From: a virus | Lineage: Duplodnaviria > Heunggongvirae > Uroviricota > Caudoviricetes | Length of the DNA: 23,885 nt | Direction: 5' to 3' (one strand) | IMG/VR virus record: IMGVR_UViG_3300010262_000019 | Made by a program: the position numbers and the translations under genes | The notes under the pieces: model-generated | Databases searched by the model: none | Seen by the model: the letters and a program-made list of their open reading frames with translations, nothing else | What the model was told of the DNA's origin: nothing | Shown: piece after piece, positions 5,755 to 23,885 of the stretch | How the letters are laid out: each line of letters begins with the position of its first letter | Position numbering within the stretch: position 1 is the first letter of the stretch

Positions 5755-6833
5755 CAGAACGGGTCCTCCTGTACTCTGGCTTTTTTCTTTTTCCGCGCGC
5801 CGGGGGCTTCGGGTTCAGGCAGATAAGCATCAGGTGGGCCGACACGGATTTCCGTCATGGTGCCGTTCTGGTCCTGAGTGAACGTGACTTCCGAGACAAG
5901 CAGTTCGGTATTGTCGAAACCACAGACCGGATCGAAGACAATCACCCGCTGGTTGGGCTGCCACAGCGTACCGTTACCCTGTCGCCAGCCCTGCACCACA
6001 TAGGTGGTTTCATCCGTCCGCGCCGCCCGTTGTCGGGCTTCAAAGTCCGCACGGGCAATACAGCCTGCCCCCGTAGCCTGCCCTGTCTGCCTGATATACA
6101 TCGGACGGTAACGGGCAATAAATGCGTCCTCTGTGCGGGCCCGCAGCGCGGTGGTGGTGGCCTCACCGAAATCATCGTCGTTTCCGGCACGCTGCCCCGC
6201 CACCTGGTAAACAGAAAACCGCTCCCGGATACTCTTCTCCGTATCGCAGGAAAGGATGTTTTCCCCGAGTACCAGCGCAGTATGTGCCCGCGTTGAGCCA
6301 ATACCGCCAATCACCAGCCTGCCGTGCGGGTCGTCGTAAGCCAGTGCCTGCTGCTGACCGAGTATTTTGTTGATTACCTCAATCACCGTTTCACCGTGAT
6401 CAGGCTGGACATCAGGAATAACACCCGACGGCGCACCGCTGTTCACCACCTCAATGCCGAAAGGCGCAGCAAGCGCCTGCGCAATCTGTACCAGCGTTCG
6501 TCCGTTAAACTGTGTCGGTTCGGCTGCACAGTCAATCAGGTCAGCGGTCAGACTGCGTCCGGCAATACCGGTGCTGACCGAACGGGCATCGTAACGAACG
6601 GGCGTCGCCTCCACCCAGCCGGTGATCACCAGCTCATCACCAATCAGCACTTCCACTTTTGAACCGTTTTTAATGCGCGGCTGAAGCGTGGTGATACCCT
6701 CATCTCCCGGCCACTGGCGGGTGATCTCCACACTGAAATCCCGCGCCAGCCGTTCAATACCGGCACCGATGCGCACCGATGTCCAGCCATTCCACTCCCG
6801 GCCATTTACCCGTAGCGTGACATTGTCGTTCAT
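5754..6833 (-). CDS. Mu gp44-like baseplate hub / late-control gene D-like tail protein
   Basis: 359-aa ORF between the DNA-circulation and V-like genes; gene order matches Mu gpP / P2 gpD family. Confidence 0.6.
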   Translation of the reverse strand: MNDNVTLRVNGREWNGWTSVRIGAGIERLARDFSVEITRQWPGDEGITTLQPRIKNGSKVEVLIGDELVITGWVEATPVRYDARSVSTGIAGRSLTADLIDCAAEPTQFNGRTLVQIAQALAAPFGIEVVNSGAPSGVIPDVQPDHGETVIEVINKILGQQQALAYDDPHGRLVIGGIGSTRAHTALVLGENILSCDTEKSIRERFSVYQVAGQRAGNDDDFGEATTTALRARTEDAFIARYRPMYIRQTGQATGAGCIARADFEARQRAARTDETTYVVQGWRQGNGTLWQPNQRVIVFDPVCGFDNTELLVSEVTFTQDQNGTMTEIRVGPPDAYLPEPEAPGARKKKKARVQEDPF

Positions 6834-8158
6834 TGCACTGGCACCTTCAGAGGGATCACCGGCACAAAGCCGGGATGCGTAATGGCATTACGCCGGATAA
6901 TGTCCGCGTCACGCGCCGCGTTATCAAACCAGGTCGCCGCCAGCACCAGCGCGGGTAAAACTTCATCCGGCGTGCGCTGAATGATCCGAGCAGACTGTTC
7001 AAGGCGCGTGTTGATATCCGCATTCAGATCTGCTTTCACCCGGCGCAGCGCCAGAAACAGCGCATCACTGGTTGTACGGGACAACTCCTTATCAATTGCC
7101 GTATTCAGTGTGTCGCGAATGTCAGTCAGTTCTTCCCACGTCGGCAGGTCAACCGTGTTTTTCACCGCCGGTGCATTGTTCAGTGCCGGATGCGTGACGG
7201 AAGGCCAGCCAGTGCTCTGCGCGGGTGTTGTTGCCTGCCCCACTGCGGAATTCTGCATCACCGCGGAAGTTGTTGGCGCAGGCAATCGGGTGACGGCATA
7301 CGCCGCTTCGCTGATTGCGGTCGTACGAAGGGTGCTGGCAACCACGTTACGCTGCTGCGTCGCCGTGGCGGTGGTTTTACTATCCGTTTTCCAGACGCCG
7401 CGCGGTTGCAGATCGCTGCCGAGGCTGACACCGGAAAGCGTTTTGATCATGGTGACCAGGTCACTGGCGTTACCATAAAGGCGTTTCCCGGTACGCCACA
7501 TTTTCTGCACCTGCTCAACGAAATTTTTGCCTGACGATGGCGGCGGCAGAAGTACCGAGATATCCCCCTGCAACAGCCTGGCGGCATCCGATACGGCAGA
7601 ATCCACCACTTTCATCGCATCAGAAACATACCCCAGCATTATGCTGGCATTACCGATAACGTCGTTCTGCACGAAATCCGCCACACCATCGATACTGAAA
7701 CCGCTGAAGCTGTCACTGATGCAGTCATCCAGTGCAGAACAGGATGACATCAGCGTCTGCGCCGTCGCCGCACCTGATGTGGGGTAAGAGAGTTCTCCTG
7801 CTTCGACAAACTTCAGGTCAAAGCGGACAATACGCCCTTCACTTTTCGATGTGCTGACCCGAACTTCCCCGTCAACACAGACTTTCAGCTCACCATATGT
7901 CGGGTGGACAAGCGTGCCGGGACCGGGTTTATTCAGCGCTTCAATCAGGCGATCGCGCTGGTCAAAGCAGTCATCTCCCACCACATAAGCTGTGATGGAC
8001 GGGCGGAAAGTGACTTTTCCCAGATCTTCGGTATAGGGCTTGTCGCGGTTCGGATATTCGTGTGTTTCCACACGGCGACCGGTTCCCGCACTTTCTTCTT
8101 CAACCTTAAACGGTACGCCGCGAAATGACGCATCCTGAAGCCTGTCTTTCCACGTCAT
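6830..8158 (-). CDS. DNA circulation protein (Mu gp43 / N family) tail protein
   Basis: 442-aa ORF with N-terminal MTWKDRLQDASFRGVPFKVEEESAGTGRRVETHEYPNRDKPYTEDLG..., typical of the Mu N DNA-circulation family; GGAG 6 nt upstream of the ATG. Confidence 0.7.
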   Translation of the reverse strand: MTWKDRLQDASFRGVPFKVEEESAGTGRRVETHEYPNRDKPYTEDLGKVTFRPSITAYVVGDDCFDQRDRLIEALNKPGPGTLVHPTYGELKVCVDGEVRVSTSKSEGRIVRFDLKFVEAGELSYPTSGAATAQTLMSSCSALDDCISDSFSGFSIDGVADFVQNDVIGNASIMLGYVSDAMKVVDSAVSDAARLLQGDISVLLPPPSSGKNFVEQVQKMWRTGKRLYGNASDLVTMIKTLSGVSLGSDLQPRGVWKTDSKTTATATQQRNVVASTLRTTAISEAAYAVTRLPAPTTSAVMQNSAVGQATTPAQSTGWPSVTHPALNNAPAVKNTVDLPTWEELTDIRDTLNTAIDKELSRTTSDALFLALRRVKADLNADINTRLEQSARIIQRTPDEVLPALVLAATWFDNAARDADIIRRNAITHPGFVPVIPLKVPVQ

Positions 8159-8173
8159 ATAAACTCCGGATAT

Positions 8174-8229
8174 AAAAAACCCGCCAAATCTGCTTTGTCA
8201 GTTATTTACATCGCAGAAGATGTGGCGGG
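8174..8229 (-). terminator. Rho-independent terminator downstream of the moron gene
   Basis: On the minus-strand RNA: cccgccacaucuucugcg ... agauuuggcggg followed by UUUUUU (plus-strand A-run at 8174-8179). The GC-rich stem plus U-tract sits between the moron stop (8249) and the RBS of the DNA-circulation gene. Confidence 0.6.
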
Positions 8230-8248
8230 AACCTAATATTTTTAATTA

Positions 8249-8743
8249 CTATCTGAGTTGAACATCAATGGAATAAATATCACCACTCTTTATAAATTTA
8301 GAATCTGTCCTTTCATCAAAAGATTCAAATGACTGTACCTTTAAAAACTTTTTCATTTTATTTTCAAAAATACTTTCATTAACACCAGTTAAATACTTGA
8401 ATGCTCTACCAGCAAGGACCTCATTACTTAAATCCATTGTGTTTTTATTGTCTTTGAAAAACCAAACAATAACCTTTTGTGGGCATGATGGATTATAAAC
8501 AGATATATAAAACTGCGGTTCATATTTTTCATCAGCGTCATCACTAAGCATTTCTTCAGAAGATAATTCTCTTCTGAATTCATATTGCCGCTTAGTTATT
8601 CCTTCATCCTTTATTATCTCTTGTTTAACTGGTGCAATACCTATAGAAGAGATTAATTCTGACTCATTAAAGCTGAACTTACACTCTTCCGCAGCCAAGT
8701 TAAAAGATAAAAGTGCAGATATAAAAAAAACAAAGATACGCAT
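8249..8743 (-). CDS. Hypothetical secreted protein encoded by an AT-rich moron; function unknown
   Basis: The ORF lies in a roughly 0.6-kb AT-rich island inside an otherwise GC-rich structural operon. The preferred start is the third ATG (MRIFVFFISALLSFNLAAEE...), which has GAAGGG 6 nt upstream. The N-terminus is a typical signal peptide (basic n-region, hydrophobic core, Ala-rich cleavage region). The mature protein is acidic/Lys-rich with two Cys residues. Confidence 0.6.
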   Translation of the reverse strand: MRIFVFFISALLSFNLAAEECKFSFNESELISSIGIAPVKQEIIKDEGITKRQYEFRRELSSEEMLSDDADEKYEPQFYISVYNPSCPQKVIVWFFKDNKNTMDLSNEVLAGRAFKYLTGVNESIFENKMKKFLKVQSFESFDERTDSKFIKSGDIYSIDVQLR

Positions 8744-8773
8744 AATCATCCCTTCAATCATTTGTAAGGAATG

Positions 8774-8802
8774 ATTATATTAACTACTTAAATCTGAAAA
8801 CC
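8774..8802 (-). promoter_or_regulatory. Candidate sigma70 promoter for the moron gene
   Basis: A perfect TATAAT (minus strand, 8779-8774) about 30 nt upstream of the preferred start, with a weak -35 (gttttc) 17 bp further upstream in an AT-rich tract. Confidence 0.35.
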
Positions 8803-8842
8803 CAAATTATGCCAGACAAAAACACATTAATCATTTTGTACA

Positions 8843-10675
8843 CTACCTGAACCGCGTATAGCCAACATCATGGCTGACATCAAAACCGCTGGATCGCGTT
8901 TCCATAACCCGCATACCCGGAGGCGAATTCACAAAAGATACCTTGATCTCACCATCAACTTTTGGCACAGAAGCTTTGTTAATCATGAAGGGATTCGAGC
9001 CTGTGGCATCGGAGGCGTTGTTTGCCTGAGCCGGATCCACCGCCGGATAAGGAGTGTATCCCCGTGGCGGTATTCCCGTCCCATAAGCATCATAAGCACC
9101 CGCGCCCCACTGCGCCGAGTTAATGGCATCGACCGTGTCACCGGAACTGTCGGTAAACCATTCAATAATCGGCTTCAGCTTACCCCACATATCCTGAAAC
9201 CACTTAACAACCGGTCCCCAGTTATTGATCACCATCCCCAGCGGCGACCAGGCAAAAACCTTCTTCAGAAGTTCCCAACCTGCCTCAAAATAAGGACCAA
9301 TGGTTTCCCAGAGCTTCTTGAAATAAGGTCCGACAACATCCCAGTTAGTGATAATTAATCCCGCAGCCAGAGCAATCGCCGTCGCAATCATGCCAATCGG
9401 CGTCATCGACATGATCCTGCTGACAATACTGATGGCACTGCCCACGCCCATCAATCCCAGTTTCAGAATCGCAAGACCGGCAGCAAGCCCGACGACGCCG
9501 CGAATAACCCGGGGATTTTCATCCGCAAACTTCGTGAATTTCTCCCCCAACTCCCCCAGCCATTGTGTGATATTTTTAGCGTCACCAGAAAATGCGCCGC
9601 CAATAGCCGCAAGGCCGTTAGTTGCGGTCCCTGTCATTGCCTCCCACAGGTTGGACAGCGTACCAAGCTGTGCCTGAACACGTTTATTCAGGCTGGCCTG
9701 TTTATTCATCTTCTGCTGGATCTGATCGTAGCCATCCTTTCCTTTATCGATTAGTGCATTGACCACCTGAAGGGTTTCGGCATCATCACCAAATATTGCC
9801 TTAAGTACACCTGTTCGCTTAACGTCGGTCAGTTTTCGCAGCTTTGCCAGTTGCCTGAACATGTTATCAAGACCGCCAAAACTTCCTTTGCCGTCAGTAA
9901 AATCGAGCTGTACCCCGAGTTTCTGGCGGGCCATAACTTTATTAACGTCCCTGATTTTCTTAACGCTTAATCCGGACTGGATAACTTTTCGCAGGGCATT
10001 ACCTGCCGACTCCCCGTTCATCCCCATCTGATCCATCATGACGCTGATGGGGGCAAGGCTCTGTGCAGCCTGAAGACCATCCTTGTTCACCATCTTCAGA
10101 ACAGAACTGGTTTTAGTGAAGAAGGACAACATGTTGGTATCGTCAACGCCCAGATAAAACGCCTTCTGGATAGTGTCGAACAGCCCCATCATGTCTTCTG
10201 ACGCCGTTCCGGTAGCATCCTGCATCTTTGCAGCAAACTCAGCAGCCGCTTCCGGTGTTTTTTTCAGTTGTACCGCAAGATAAGCTGTCGCTTTACCCAC
10301 ACCACCCAGAATGTTTTCTGCCGGGATCCCCTGACGCACCAGCATCTGCATCATGTTCTGGAAATCAGCCGTTGTACCGGGTAGCTGGTTACCCAGGCCA
10401 ATAGCCAGTTTATTGATGTCCTGAAAGCTCTTTCCAACCTCGCCGTTCGCATCCATCATGGCGACTTTCAGCCCGGTGGCGGCGTTTTCCTGATCGGCAT
10501 AAGATTTCAGGGAAAGCGTCAGACCCGCTGCCAGTCCGCCACCAAGCGCCAGCCCACCCTGTGACGCTTCTTCCGCCTGGCGTTTAAATCCCCGGATTTT
10601 CTTTTGCATTTTCGACAGCGCGGGAGAAAGCCTGTCGACACCGGTGATCAACGCCTTAAGCTCAAATTCAGCCAT
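8843..10675 (-). CDS. Tail tape-measure protein
   Basis: 610-aa ORF immediately downstream of the tail assembly chaperone pair, with a Gly/Ala-rich, helical-looking sequence and an internal hydrophobic stretch; position is diagnostic. Confidence 0.8.
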   Translation of the reverse strand: MAEFELKALITGVDRLSPALSKMQKKIRGFKRQAEEASQGGLALGGGLAAGLTLSLKSYADQENAATGLKVAMMDANGEVGKSFQDINKLAIGLGNQLPGTTADFQNMMQMLVRQGIPAENILGGVGKATAYLAVQLKKTPEAAAEFAAKMQDATGTASEDMMGLFDTIQKAFYLGVDDTNMLSFFTKTSSVLKMVNKDGLQAAQSLAPISVMMDQMGMNGESAGNALRKVIQSGLSVKKIRDVNKVMARQKLGVQLDFTDGKGSFGGLDNMFRQLAKLRKLTDVKRTGVLKAIFGDDAETLQVVNALIDKGKDGYDQIQQKMNKQASLNKRVQAQLGTLSNLWEAMTGTATNGLAAIGGAFSGDAKNITQWLGELGEKFTKFADENPRVIRGVVGLAAGLAILKLGLMGVGSAISIVSRIMSMTPIGMIATAIALAAGLIITNWDVVGPYFKKLWETIGPYFEAGWELLKKVFAWSPLGMVINNWGPVVKWFQDMWGKLKPIIEWFTDSSGDTVDAINSAQWGAGAYDAYGTGIPPRGYTPYPAVDPAQANNASDATGSNPFMINKASVPKVDGEIKVSFVNSPPGMRVMETRSSGFDVSHDVGYTRFR

Positions 10676-14869: not shown

Positions 14870-14879
14870 AAAACCTCCT

Positions 14880-14923
14880 GTGCCCGCCAGAACGCGGGCA
14901 CAAAAAAACCGCATTACGCGGCG
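14880..14923 (-). terminator. Hairpin/attenuator region downstream of the major capsid gene
   Basis: On the minus-strand RNA a short hairpin (ccgcguaaugcgg) is followed by UUUUUUU, then a perfect 8-bp GC stem (gugcccgc-guucug-gcgggcac) directly before the AGGAGG of the next gene. Confidence 0.35.
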
Positions 14924-20507: not shown

Positions 20508-20858
20508 TCACTTTAACCGTTCACGGGCCGTCTTCGCCTTATGGCAGGGCCAGCACAGACTCTGCAGATTACTGTCGGCATCAGTGCCGCCATGCGCTTT
20601 AGGGATGATGTGGTCAACGGTTTTCGCCTCGCGCACCACACCGGCACGCAAACACAACTGACACAGGCCTTTGTCACGCTTCAGTACTCGCACCCGGATA
20701 CCGTCCCACTTCGAACCATAACCACGCTGATGGCGGGACTGGCCCGACTTGTATTGCTTCCAGCCCTCGCTTTTGTGGCTTTCGCAGTAGCCTGACGGGT
20801 CAGTCGTGGTATTGCGGCAGCCGCGAACACGGCAGGCTTTTGGGATTCGAGGAGGCAT
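20508..20858 (-). CDS. HNH endonuclease (terminase-associated)
   Basis: 116-aa ORF with an N-terminal Cys cluster (CRVRGC...C.SH) and the HNH core ...VDHIIPKAHGGTDADSNLQSLCWPCHKAKT...; it lies immediately upstream of the terminase genes. Confidence 0.85.
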   Translation of the reverse strand: MPPRIPKACRVRGCRNTTTDPSGYCESHKSEGWKQYKSGQSRHQRGYGSKWDGIRVRVLKRDKGLCQLCLRAGVVREAKTVDHIIPKAHGGTDADSNLQSLCWPCHKAKTARERLK

Positions 20859-22844: not shown

Positions 22845-23102
22845 TCAAACACTACCCTGTTGATTCTTTCTCAGAGGCGGACTTGACTCCCAGGGGAAAC
22901 TCAACTTTCCGTTAAAACCACCAGCAGACATTCGTTCAATTTCCACAGAAATATCACTGAGCCGTTCTTCAAGCTCTGCTTTTTCTTTTACCAGACGGTT
23001 ATAGCGGCTTAGATGAAGCTTTTGCTGCTCCAGCCAGTCTTCAAGCTGTTCAACAGTCATACCAGGGTTAAAAAAATATGGCTGCTGCTTTTCGTCCTGC
23101 AT
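22845..23102 (-). CDS. Hypothetical small protein (85 aa) between the Q-like gene and the lysis cassette
   Basis: Preferred start MQDEKQQPYFFNPG... has GGAGG 8 nt upstream and lies immediately after the candidate terminator; the longer 108-aa ORF in the track would span that terminator. The product is helical and charged, and is not a recognisable lysis protein. Confidence 0.5.
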   Translation of the reverse strand: MQDEKQQPYFFNPGMTVEQLEDWLEQQKLHLSRYNRLVKEKAELEERLSDISVEIERMSAGGFNGKLSFPWESSPPLRKNQQGSV

Positions 23103-23115
23103 TATTGACCTCCAG

Positions 23116-23142
23116 AAAAGCAAAAACCCCGCCGAAGCGAGG
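23116..23142 (-). terminator. Candidate tR'-like rho-independent terminator downstream of the late promoter
   Basis: Minus-strand RNA ccucgc-uucg-gcgggg (6-bp stem including one G-U pair, UUCG tetraloop) followed by UUUUUGCUUUU. Confidence 0.5.
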
Positions 23143-23192
23143 TTTGTTATGATTTCGTTAACGGCAGACATACAAAGCCCATCGTTAGGAGA

Positions 23193-23252: not shown

Positions 23253-23885
23253 TTATCTCGTCACTTTTCTTAATTGCGCCTCAGCATATGCTTCTTCCTG
23301 CCAGCACTTTGTCACCAGTTTATCAATGACATCTGCATATCCTTTGTACCACTGATAATCCGTCAGGTCTGGTACCAGCTTCTGGACATGATGCCGCGCC
23401 AGTGTGGTTGGTAAACGGCTAAACCGGTTTCCATTGCAACGCCCACAAATCTTATAAACAGGCGTGCCATGAAGCCGGGTCCTTTTTTCATCCAGGACAA
23501 TACCTTTACCCTTACACCCTCTGCACGCTGTGCTGACTTCTCCCTTACCATGACAATGCTGACATAGTTCCTTCACCCACTCTTCCTTGATAACAGATTC
23601 CCCGCTTCTGGAGTGTTTCACCACCTCGCGCAATACATTATGAAATCCCGTACCTGCACAATGCTCACAGCGAGCCTTACTTGCCGCAGACCTGGAATAA
23701 TCAGCAAAAGCAAAATTCACAAGGTAAGGGATGATCTGTAACCGGGTTTCTTCACTCAATTTGTTCAATGCCGGGTTATCCAGTGCCATCGCGTAATTGA
23801 GCAGACCTTCAATCGCAAACTGAGGCTCCTGAACACCAACTTTTGCCAGGAATAAGGCAAACCCAAGCGGTGCTTTCGACTGCAC
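23253..23885 (-). CDS. Q-like late-gene antitermination protein (5' end may lie beyond the window edge)
   Basis: The ORF runs to the window edge. It contains four Cys pairs (CEHCAGTG, CQHCHGKG, CRGCKGKG, CGRCNGNR), i.e. a zinc-binding cluster, and lies directly upstream of the promoter/terminator pair and the lysis genes. Confidence 0.55.
   Translation of the reverse strand: MQSKAPLGFALFLAKVGVQEPQFAIEGLLNYAMALDNPALNKLSEETRLQIIPYLVNFAFADYSRSAASKARCEHCAGTGFHNVLREVVKHSRSGESVIKEEWVKELCQHCHGKGEVSTACRGCKGKGIVLDEKRTRLHGTPVYKICGRCNGNRFSRLPTTLARHHVQKLVPDLTDYQWYKGYADVIDKLVTKCWQEEAYAEAQLRKVTR

Follow-up and report, generated by a model that had tools for sequence, protein, structure and literature searches.

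An AT-rich gene for a predicted periplasmic protein lies in a recurrent cargo slot between the tape-measure and gp43 genes of SfV-like phages

RESULTS

An AT-rich island with one gene

This report concerns a single gene, here called X, and the place that it occupies in the IMG/VR virus record IMGVR_UViG_3300010262_000019 (Caudoviricetes), whose 23,885 nucleotides (nt) were analyzed at full length and are referred to below as the window. X lies in an AT-rich island between the gene for the tail tape measure and the gene for a DNA-circulation protein (gp43). Judging from the sequences compared here, the junction of these two genes is a recurrent cargo slot, or hot spot, and X is its occupant in this phage. 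The window covers the late region of a temperate phage that is SfV/SfII-like and whose contractile tail is of the Mu type, and every gene is on the minus strand. The original prediction, made from the window alone, had described the island as a one-gene unit for a secreted protein between these two neighbors. The gene, its location, and all other sequence features described for the island were found at the coordinates given for them.

GC content is 0.30 to 0.34 over positions 8100 to 8850, versus 0.54 to 0.61 in the flanks (300-nt intervals). The island is the GC minimum of the window, at 0.304 versus a mean of 0.525 (standard deviation 0.055) in 500-nt intervals, or about 4 standard deviations below the mean. 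The segment that varies between phages (8180 to 8853, see below) has a GC content of 0.315 and gene X one of 0.307, compared to 0.524 for the whole window. At third codon positions (GC3), X has a value of 0.24 versus 0.56 to 0.60 in the surrounding genes. X therefore has the deviant composition of a moron (GC of 0.31 versus 0.52 to 0.56).

Only one open reading frame (ORF) of at least 60 amino acids (aa) is found in the island, on the minus strand, running from 8249 to either 8761 or 8743. Of the two possible starts, the ATG at 8743 is the more likely because it is preceded by a Shine-Dalgarno-like GAAGGG at a distance of 6 nt, because all homologs begin with Met-Arg, and because PGAP annotates a protein of 164 aa. 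The alternative start at 8761, which would give 170 aa, has no Shine-Dalgarno sequence and was rejected. An Rfam search of the island returned only noise. Features of the island and of the neighboring genes are listed in Table 1.

Table 1. Positions of gene X, its associated elements, and neighboring genes in the window
Feature	Position	Strand	Remarks
Cargo gene X	8249..8743	-	164-aa precursor; two conserved Cys (C21, C87); PHROG 8976
Signal-peptide coding part of X, MRIFVFFISALLSFNLAA	8690..8743	-	Cleavage predicted before EEC
Shine-Dalgarno-like GAAGGG	8750..8755	-	6 nt before ATG at 8743
AT-rich leader, 99 nt, tape-measure stop to cargo start	8744..8842	-	Contains the sole candidate promoter elements
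TTTTCA (8800-8795), 15-nt spacer, perfect TATAAT (8779-8774)	8774..8800	-	Candidate promoter; TATAAT 30 nt upstream of ATG
Extended -10-like TGgCATAAT	8806..8814	-	Candidate; 62 nt upstream of ATG; -35 ATGATT 3/6, spacer 17, TG extension
Intrinsic-terminator-like hairpin (8229-8180) and T6 run (8179-8174)	8174..8229	-	Stem CCCGCC/GGCGGG, 38-nt loop expansion
gp43 ribosome-binding site GGAG	8167-8164	-	Directly after junction terminator
Tail tape-measure gene, upstream neighbor of X	8843..10675	-	Annotated tape measure in phage SKA5; PF10145 at all homologous loci
DNA-circulation/Mu gp43-like baseplate gene, downstream neighbor of X	6830..8158	-	PF07157 at homologous loci
Q-type antiterminator	23253..23885	-	PF03589, E = 2.8e-45

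Presence and absence of X among related phages

A megablast search with positions 7600 to 9400 found the identical island in phage SKA5. In SfV, SfII, SfI, and vB_EcoM-689R6, both flanks match at 95 to 97% identity and about 620 bp is absent, so that X is extra DNA relative to close relatives, as is characteristic of morons. In the alignment, the variable segment is bounded at 8180, immediately beyond the T run, and at 8853, within the last tape-measure codons (ending GYTRFR and stop), with homology to SfII resuming at 8854. SfII has only about 52 bp in place of the variable segment, including an annotated rho-independent terminator, and in the closest phages the tape-measure stop and the start of gp43 are only about 60 bp apart. 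The island thus interrupts the operon, as had been predicted. A core tail protein of the Mu/SfV type would be present throughout and cytoplasmic; X is absent from SfV, SfII, SfI, and SfIV as well as from about half of the surveyed loci, and it carries an export signal.

The gp43 gene of the window's type is found in 1,091 of 5,426 complete Escherichia coli genomes. The junction is contiguous and empty in 542 of these 1,091 genomes, and the X island is present in 85. An AT-rich island with an unrelated secreted cargo, Y, was found in 101 of the 5,426 genomes. The comparison with related prophages that the original prediction had called for therefore shows junctions that are either empty or hold other cargo, and its description of an AT-rich single-gene accessory unit stands, as the nearest relatives lack X.

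A second allele of the island is found in E. coli KE51 (L076; 95.8% identical). Over window positions 8140 to 8870, the two differ at 29 sites, all but 4 of which lie in the coding region (dS, the synonymous divergence, is 0.16). The two alleles agree fully in the terminator hairpin, at the start of gp43, and at the end of the tape-measure gene, and 3 substitutions fall in the 99-nt leader. This pattern suggests an allele exchange confined to gene X. Between these two E. coli alleles, the 25 substitutions in the gene give a ratio of nonsynonymous to synonymous change (dN/dS) of 0.18, and X is therefore under purifying selection, as expected of a working gene.

The tape-measure/gp43 junction as a cargo slot

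A survey of the junction covered 53 gp43 loci in species-representative genomes. The gap between the tape-measure stop and the start of gp43 has a bimodal length, with 3 to 91 bp in about 20 loci and about 515 to 700 bp, at a GC content of 0.29 to 0.44, in about 25; a few junctions are intermediate or longer. X is present in only three of the occupied junctions. The others hold at least 10 unrelated families of proteins of 130 to 190 aa, encoded on either strand. With X included, 7 of 11 cargo families appear to be targeted to the envelope by a signal peptide, a lipobox, or an N-terminal membrane anchor. The envelope-targeted kinds other than X are the signal-peptide family Y, lipoproteins with Asp at position +2, another signal-peptide protein, and three membrane-anchored kinds, and the remaining cargo consists of bPH_1, ClpP-like, RepL-like, and unknown cytoplasmic proteins. 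A PADLOC search of the slot cargo gave no convincing defense match and only weak matches of the winged helix-turn-helix type for one cargo.

Two of these cargoes are of particular relevance to X. Y, found in E. coli FXCREC043 (L074:2411-2899) and in phage vB_EcoM-720R4, is a protein of 162 aa with a signal peptide and two conserved Cys residues and belongs to PHROG 5586. Homology between X and Y was considered and rejected, as hhalign aligned only their signal peptides with a probability of 17%. One copy of Y is interrupted by IS1 (hit H70). The cargo of Scandinavium hiltneri (L023) is encoded on the opposite strand; it is a membrane-anchored protein of 150 aa with a tRNA_anti-like oligonucleotide-binding fold (PF12869) that matches PHROG 8545, annotated as "superinfection exclusion Sie-like" (E = 9e-41).

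X itself, by its composition and its pattern of presence and absence, is an ordinary uncharacterized moron. The wider slot is the more useful result, and no description of it was found in the papers searched.

X descends with the tail module and stays AT-rich

All phage-borne X homologs examined, down to 27% identity, have the same place and orientation between the tape measure (PF10145) and gp43 (PF07157). The same arrangement is seen in all 45 IMG/VR loci as far as the contigs extend, with both flanks present in 43 of the 45. Hosts include E. coli, Salmonella, Shigella, Kosakonia, Kluyvera, Atlantibacter, Pantoea, and Yersinia, and X is also found on metagenomic contigs. X is 0.59 to 0.62 identical where the tape measure, gp43, gp44, and sheath proteins are 0.73 to 0.86 identical, 0.33 to 0.36 identical where the tail proteins are 0.56 to 0.68 identical, and 0.27 identical where they are 0.43 to 0.59 identical. 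The identity of X falls in step with that of the tail proteins, and we therefore conclude that X descends with the module and evolves faster than its neighbors. X had originally been described as inserted. That it is accessory and absent from the nearest relatives agrees with this description, but a recent insertion does not, since orthologs share the slot where tail proteins are only 43 to 68% identical.

The orthologs of X also stay AT-rich. Gene GC is 0.33 to 0.40, and GC3 in most lineages is 0.24 to 0.36 versus 0.46 to 0.64 in the flanks (window positions 8249 to 8743 and orthologs in L004, L006, L013, L016, and L017). Because it persists after divergence to 27 to 36% protein identity, the AT richness of X is not the leftover of a recent transfer; from these sequences, it appears to be maintained.

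The sole relative of X outside a phage was found in a metagenome assembly (L011:8001-8471). It encodes 156 aa at a GC content of 0.37, lacks a signal peptide, and directly follows an autotransporter gene and its terminator. This gene may be a relic or the source of the X family.

X is predicted to be a soluble periplasmic protein of a very small family

The predicted signal peptide of X has the layout MR / IFVFFISALLSF / NLAA, followed by EEC, and has the sequence features of a substrate of Sec and signal peptidase I. The only hydrophobic segment of X is N terminal (residues 3 to 18), with a Kyte-Doolittle maximum of 2.67 at residues 3 to 13. The sequence of this segment differs among family members, but all versions are hydrophobic and end in small-x-Ala 2 to 3 residues before a conserved Cys. 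A lipoprotein was considered and rejected: X has no lipobox, as its Cys, 3 residues past the site of predicted cleavage, is not part of an L-x-x-C motif. The single hydrophobic peak and the conserved A-x-A-type cleavage site thus support the signal peptide that had been predicted. Assuming cleavage after residue 18, mature X would have about 146 aa, a mass of 17.1 kDa, and a pI of 4.9.

Among 13 sequences with 55 to 66% identity to X, 39 columns are invariant. When distant members are added, C87 remains invariant and C21 is nearly so, being conserved in all family members except the chromosomal relative. This suggests that the two residues form one disulfide bond. We strongly infer from these features that X is exported by Sec to the periplasm as a soluble, disulfide-bonded protein. 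An export signal also sets X apart from tail-assembly-interference defense proteins of the Tai or Tab type, which act in the cytoplasm, and this identity was rejected. The AlphaFold2 (AF2) model of X is confident, with a predicted local distance difference test score (pLDDT) of 88 and a predicted template-modeling (TM) score of 0.79; pLDDT is about 50 for residues 1 to 20 and above 90 thereafter.

X is a member of PHROG 8976, which it matches end to end (1 to 164 of 164, E = 2.8e-107). This family has no annotation or characterized member and so provides a name without a function. Pfam, NCBIfam, and PADLOC gave no match to X even at E of ≤10, a PDB sequence-profile search gave nothing below E = 0.04, and a Foldseek search of the X model against PDB gave no match. 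X had originally been reported as an unrecognized sequence, and these searches likewise gave no functional link. A structure search of BFVD returned one gut-phage protein with a TM score of 0.63. The family is tiny: it comprises 16 clusters among 5.8 billion proteins, an exhaustive profile search of 1.84 billion representatives returned only 12 matches, all from one small family, and a word-indexed search with a broader profile added no further families. No sequence or fold homology to known superinfection exclusion or defense families was found in the libraries searched. Public copies of X are all labeled hypothetical, and a literature search on the protein accessions, phage SKA5, and morons in SfV-like phages found nothing on gene X.

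Transcription signals at the junction

The original prediction had given X a terminator of its own. The hairpin and T run are present, and they reside at the junction itself. Just upstream of gp43 at loci L020 to L065 in SfV-like phages of the Enterobacterales, the element ACCCGCTTCGGCGGG-T6-7, with CCGGAG and the ATG of gp43 after it, is kept whether the junction is empty or holds plus-strand cargo of any kind, the cargo sitting upstream of it. The conserved ACCCGCTTCGGCGGGTTTTTTT likewise occurs at empty and occupied junctions alike. The terminator is missing where cargo lies on the opposite strand. In the X-bearing IMG/VR copies, as in the KE51 allele, it is identical to that of the window. 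Alone, the window hairpin has a folding energy of -20.5 kcal/mol versus about -10 kcal/mol for the canonical form, and its z score in a 102-nt context is -2.9. On this evidence, the terminator would belong to the slot and not to gene X, and it would still insulate the unit.

For a promoter belonging to X, also part of the original prediction, there are candidate elements and the evidence is weak. A perfect TATAAT is present, but this hexamer occurs at chance frequency (7 copies in the window versus 6.7 expected), and its -35 partner is poor. The 15-nt spacer between them is outside the 16- to 18-nt range of a sigma-70 consensus scan, which called no site in positions 7900 to 9100. Both candidates in Table 1 are conserved in KE51, and no promoter-like element has a fixed position among the X orthologs. 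At L013 and L016, X is separated from the tape-measure stop by 15 to 17 nt that contain only a ribosome-binding site, and at L017 the called X ORF overlaps the tape-measure gene.

A separate observation concerns the tape-measure C terminus. In several loci, the codons for its conserved Gly-Tyr-Asn/Ser-Arg motif spell TATAAT, TACAAT, or TATAGT 30 to 35 nt upstream of abutting cargo, and at empty junctions they read TATAAC or TACAAC instead; this comparison (L013, L016, L017, L039, L048, L053, and L064 versus L035, L036, L049, and L065) covers a small and phylogenetically nonindependent sample. Such a -10-like hexamer may be a promoter embedded in coding sequence.

Other genes of the window

The late genes are arranged in the order Q antiterminator, holins, GH19 endolysin, HNH endonuclease and terminase, HK97-type head genes, sheath, tube, and tape measure. 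Downstream of the tape measure, gp43 is followed by baseplate genes, tail fibers, and an invertase. In one complete genome, a near-identical prophage adjoins dusA. A very strong terminator-like hairpin at 14874-14922 on the minus strand (14 bp, 7 GC pairs, T-run flanks) lies between the gene for the major capsid protein and the genes of the head-tail connector. As this is a second internal terminator, located after the capsid gene in a Q-dependent late operon, read-through of internal terminators is evidently normal there.

The HNH endonuclease gene (20508-20858, minus strand) lies directly upstream of a P27-family small terminase gene, which is the usual layout of HK97-like cos packaging. An ORF of 108 aa between the Q antiterminator and the holins (22845-23171, minus strand) coincides with a local GC dip to 0.42 and has no Pfam match. 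The paper on SfIV describes a moron between Q and the lysis genes, which is the same position, and that moron is different from X. At 358-2527, a resolvase/invertase gene (PF00239 and HTH_7) has tail-fiber and fiber-assembly ORFs beside it on both strands, and the GC content dips at 1200-1400. This region looks like an invertible host-range segment of the Gin/Hin type.

DISCUSSION

We propose that X is an exported cargo lodged in a slot of SfV-like Enterobacterales phages. The slot would consist of the tape-measure gene, a short spacer, a strong terminator (ACCCGCTTCGGCGGGT7), and the gp43 ribosome-binding site, with accessory genes entering between the tape-measure stop and the terminator. 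The X precursor would be exported by Sec, cut after residue 18, and folded in the periplasm to an acidic, soluble alpha/beta protein of 17 kDa, probably with a disulfide bond. Since X is on the strand of the tail genes, late transcription by Q-modified polymerase must include X as well, so lytic growth would yield X together with the tail proteins. In the lysogen, any Q-independent transcript from the AT-rich leader would halt at the junction terminator, and the baseplate genes would stay silent. We infer that X is expressed in this state. X would then bind in the periplasm of the lysogen and block an envelope step of an incoming phage, either periplasmic transit or inner membrane penetration. 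The step blocked could involve the tape measure or the tail tip of contractile-tailed relatives. Taken as a whole, this account is a tentative one, which we consider possible and somewhat short of probable.

Superinfection exclusion in the periplasm is, on our analysis, the most likely role of X, though it too is held with less than even confidence. It is favored because envelope proteins predominate among the slot cargo and one of them is annotated as Sie-like; because HK97 gp15 provides a precedent for a tape-measure-adjacent moron that blocks injection in a tail-dependent manner (PMC3594210); because the X family is tied to a phage module and not to any host niche; and because X evolves faster than its neighbors. 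Several observations weigh against exclusion by X in the lysogen. The promoter evidence is at chance level and X abuts the tape measure in distant orthologs, so expression could be purely late. Unrelated cargo shares the slot, so adjacency to the tape measure may reflect merely a permissive insertion site. The 38-nt expanded loop makes the efficiency of the window terminator uncertain, and the Sie-like label on the L023 cargo is a database annotation.

These observations bear directly on an alternative in which X is a late accessory protein, expressed only from the Q-dependent tail operon and acting in the periplasm of the infected cell. It might guard against superinfection or lysis from without, prevent the loss of progeny on debris, or condition the envelope before lysis; Llp of phage T5 keeps progeny from being wasted on cell debris. 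The place of X on the tail-gene strand within a Q-antiterminated operon, the spacing of 15 to 17 nt at L013 and L016 and the overlap at L017, the lack of a called sigma-70 site or conserved promoter, and the strict positional fidelity and codivergence with the tail module all fit this alternative. However, X is dispensable, as shown by near-identical phages without it and the 542 E. coli genomes whose junction is empty, and some occupants of the slot lie on the opposite strand and cannot join a late transcript. The persistent AT richness and, in E. coli, the 99-nt AT-rich leader are typical of independently expressed morons. An exclusively late role is unlikely in our estimation, and late expression and expression in the lysogen are not mutually exclusive. 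We give about the same low weight to X as a lysogenic-conversion factor, that is, a periplasmic stress, nutrient, or host interaction protein like the prophage-encoded periplasmic SodC or lambda Bor and Lom. The export signal and the moron-like composition and placement of X would suit such a protein, as would a weak resemblance of its modeled fold to ligand-binding UTRA/chorismate lyase-like domains and to periplasmic RseB/MucB and LolA-type proteins; the BFVD model matched at a TM score of 0.63 is labeled "periplasmic binding protein." But the hosts come from niches as disparate as gut, poultry, plants, and fish pathogens while the gene never leaves its phage slot, the family numbers only 12 among 1.84 billion, its sole nonphage chromosomal relative lacks a signal peptide, and none of the conserved residues looks catalytic.

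Because X is small, acidic, exported, fast evolving, and of a binding type, it could also be an orphan periplasmic immunity or inhibitor protein that acts against type VI secretion system or Rhs effectors, colicins, or tailocin or phage tail lysins. This seems quite unlikely, as no cognate toxin gene lies nearby and no immunity family of Pfam or PADLOC matches X. The location of X, on the coding strand and amid the genes of the tail operon, might instead point to a structural or assembly protein of the tail, or to a nonfunctional hitchhiking ORF. Both are highly improbable: the close relatives SfV, SfII, and SfI are viable without X, a signal peptide is incompatible with virion assembly in the cytoplasm, and a dN/dS of 0.18, conservation across genera, and a confident predicted fold argue against junk.

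A bolder version of the slot account can be framed. The junction would be a dedicated, terminator-insulated expression slot that, across the Enterobacterales, stores at least 11 single-gene cargoes, mostly uncharacterized and mostly envelope targeted, with X founding a family of soluble periplasmic exclusion proteins that intercept the tape measure or tail tip of contractile-tailed phages. The AT richness maintained at synonymous sites would then be part of regulation in the lysogen, for example by H-NS-type silencing. We regard this version as doubtful.

If X or slot mates such as Y do exclude phage in the periplasm, they would add a soluble periplasmic class to the few characterized blockers of phage entry and would offer a way to study how Mu-type contractile tails deliver DNA at the periplasmic stage, which is poorly understood. 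The tail module is present in about 1 in 5 complete E. coli genomes, so slot cargo could influence host range in phage therapy. The conserved flanks, the conserved terminator, and the bimodal gap length make the slot easily mined for more accessory genes.

X can be compared with several known systems. The lambda genes bor and lom and Gifsy-2 sodCI are AT-rich additions near tail genes with exported products that the prophage expresses. They have recognizable families and host-directed phenotypes, whereas X has neither. P1 Sim and T4 Sp and Imm, which are phage proteins exported to or located in the envelope, keep DNA from entering once the phage has adsorbed. By analogy of mechanism only, they are the closest analogs for soluble periplasmic exclusion of a contractile-tailed phage; no homology of X to proteins of the Sim, Sp, or Imm type was found in the libraries searched, in which the Sim and Sp sequences were not directly compared.

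The slot resembles the hot spots of accessory and defense genes in temperate phages and satellites, such as those of P2 and P4 (Rousset et al. 2022, PMC9122126). In both, the intergenic position is fixed, and unrelated small cargo interchanges between otherwise near-identical phages. The slot of X differs in lying inside the tail operon, in being bounded by a conserved intrinsic terminator, and in holding single genes for proteins of 130 to 190 aa that are mainly envelope targeted.

The nearest precedent in position is gp15 of HK97, a prophage-expressed moron that adjoins the tape-measure gene and causes a tail-dependent block of genome injection (PMC3594210; Juhala et al. 2000; Cumby et al. 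2012). Its mode of action serves here as the model for X. No relation of X to gp15 in sequence or fold was found. HK97 gp15 is a small inner membrane protein of the YebO family, encoded by a siphovirus upstream of the tape measure, whereas X is predicted to be a soluble periplasmic protein of 146 aa and belongs to a Mu-type contractile tail module, downstream of the tape measure. Both are single-gene additions to a tail operon beside the tape measure that deviate in GC content, are absent from sister phages, and encode products that are targeted, or in the case of X predicted to be targeted, to the envelope.

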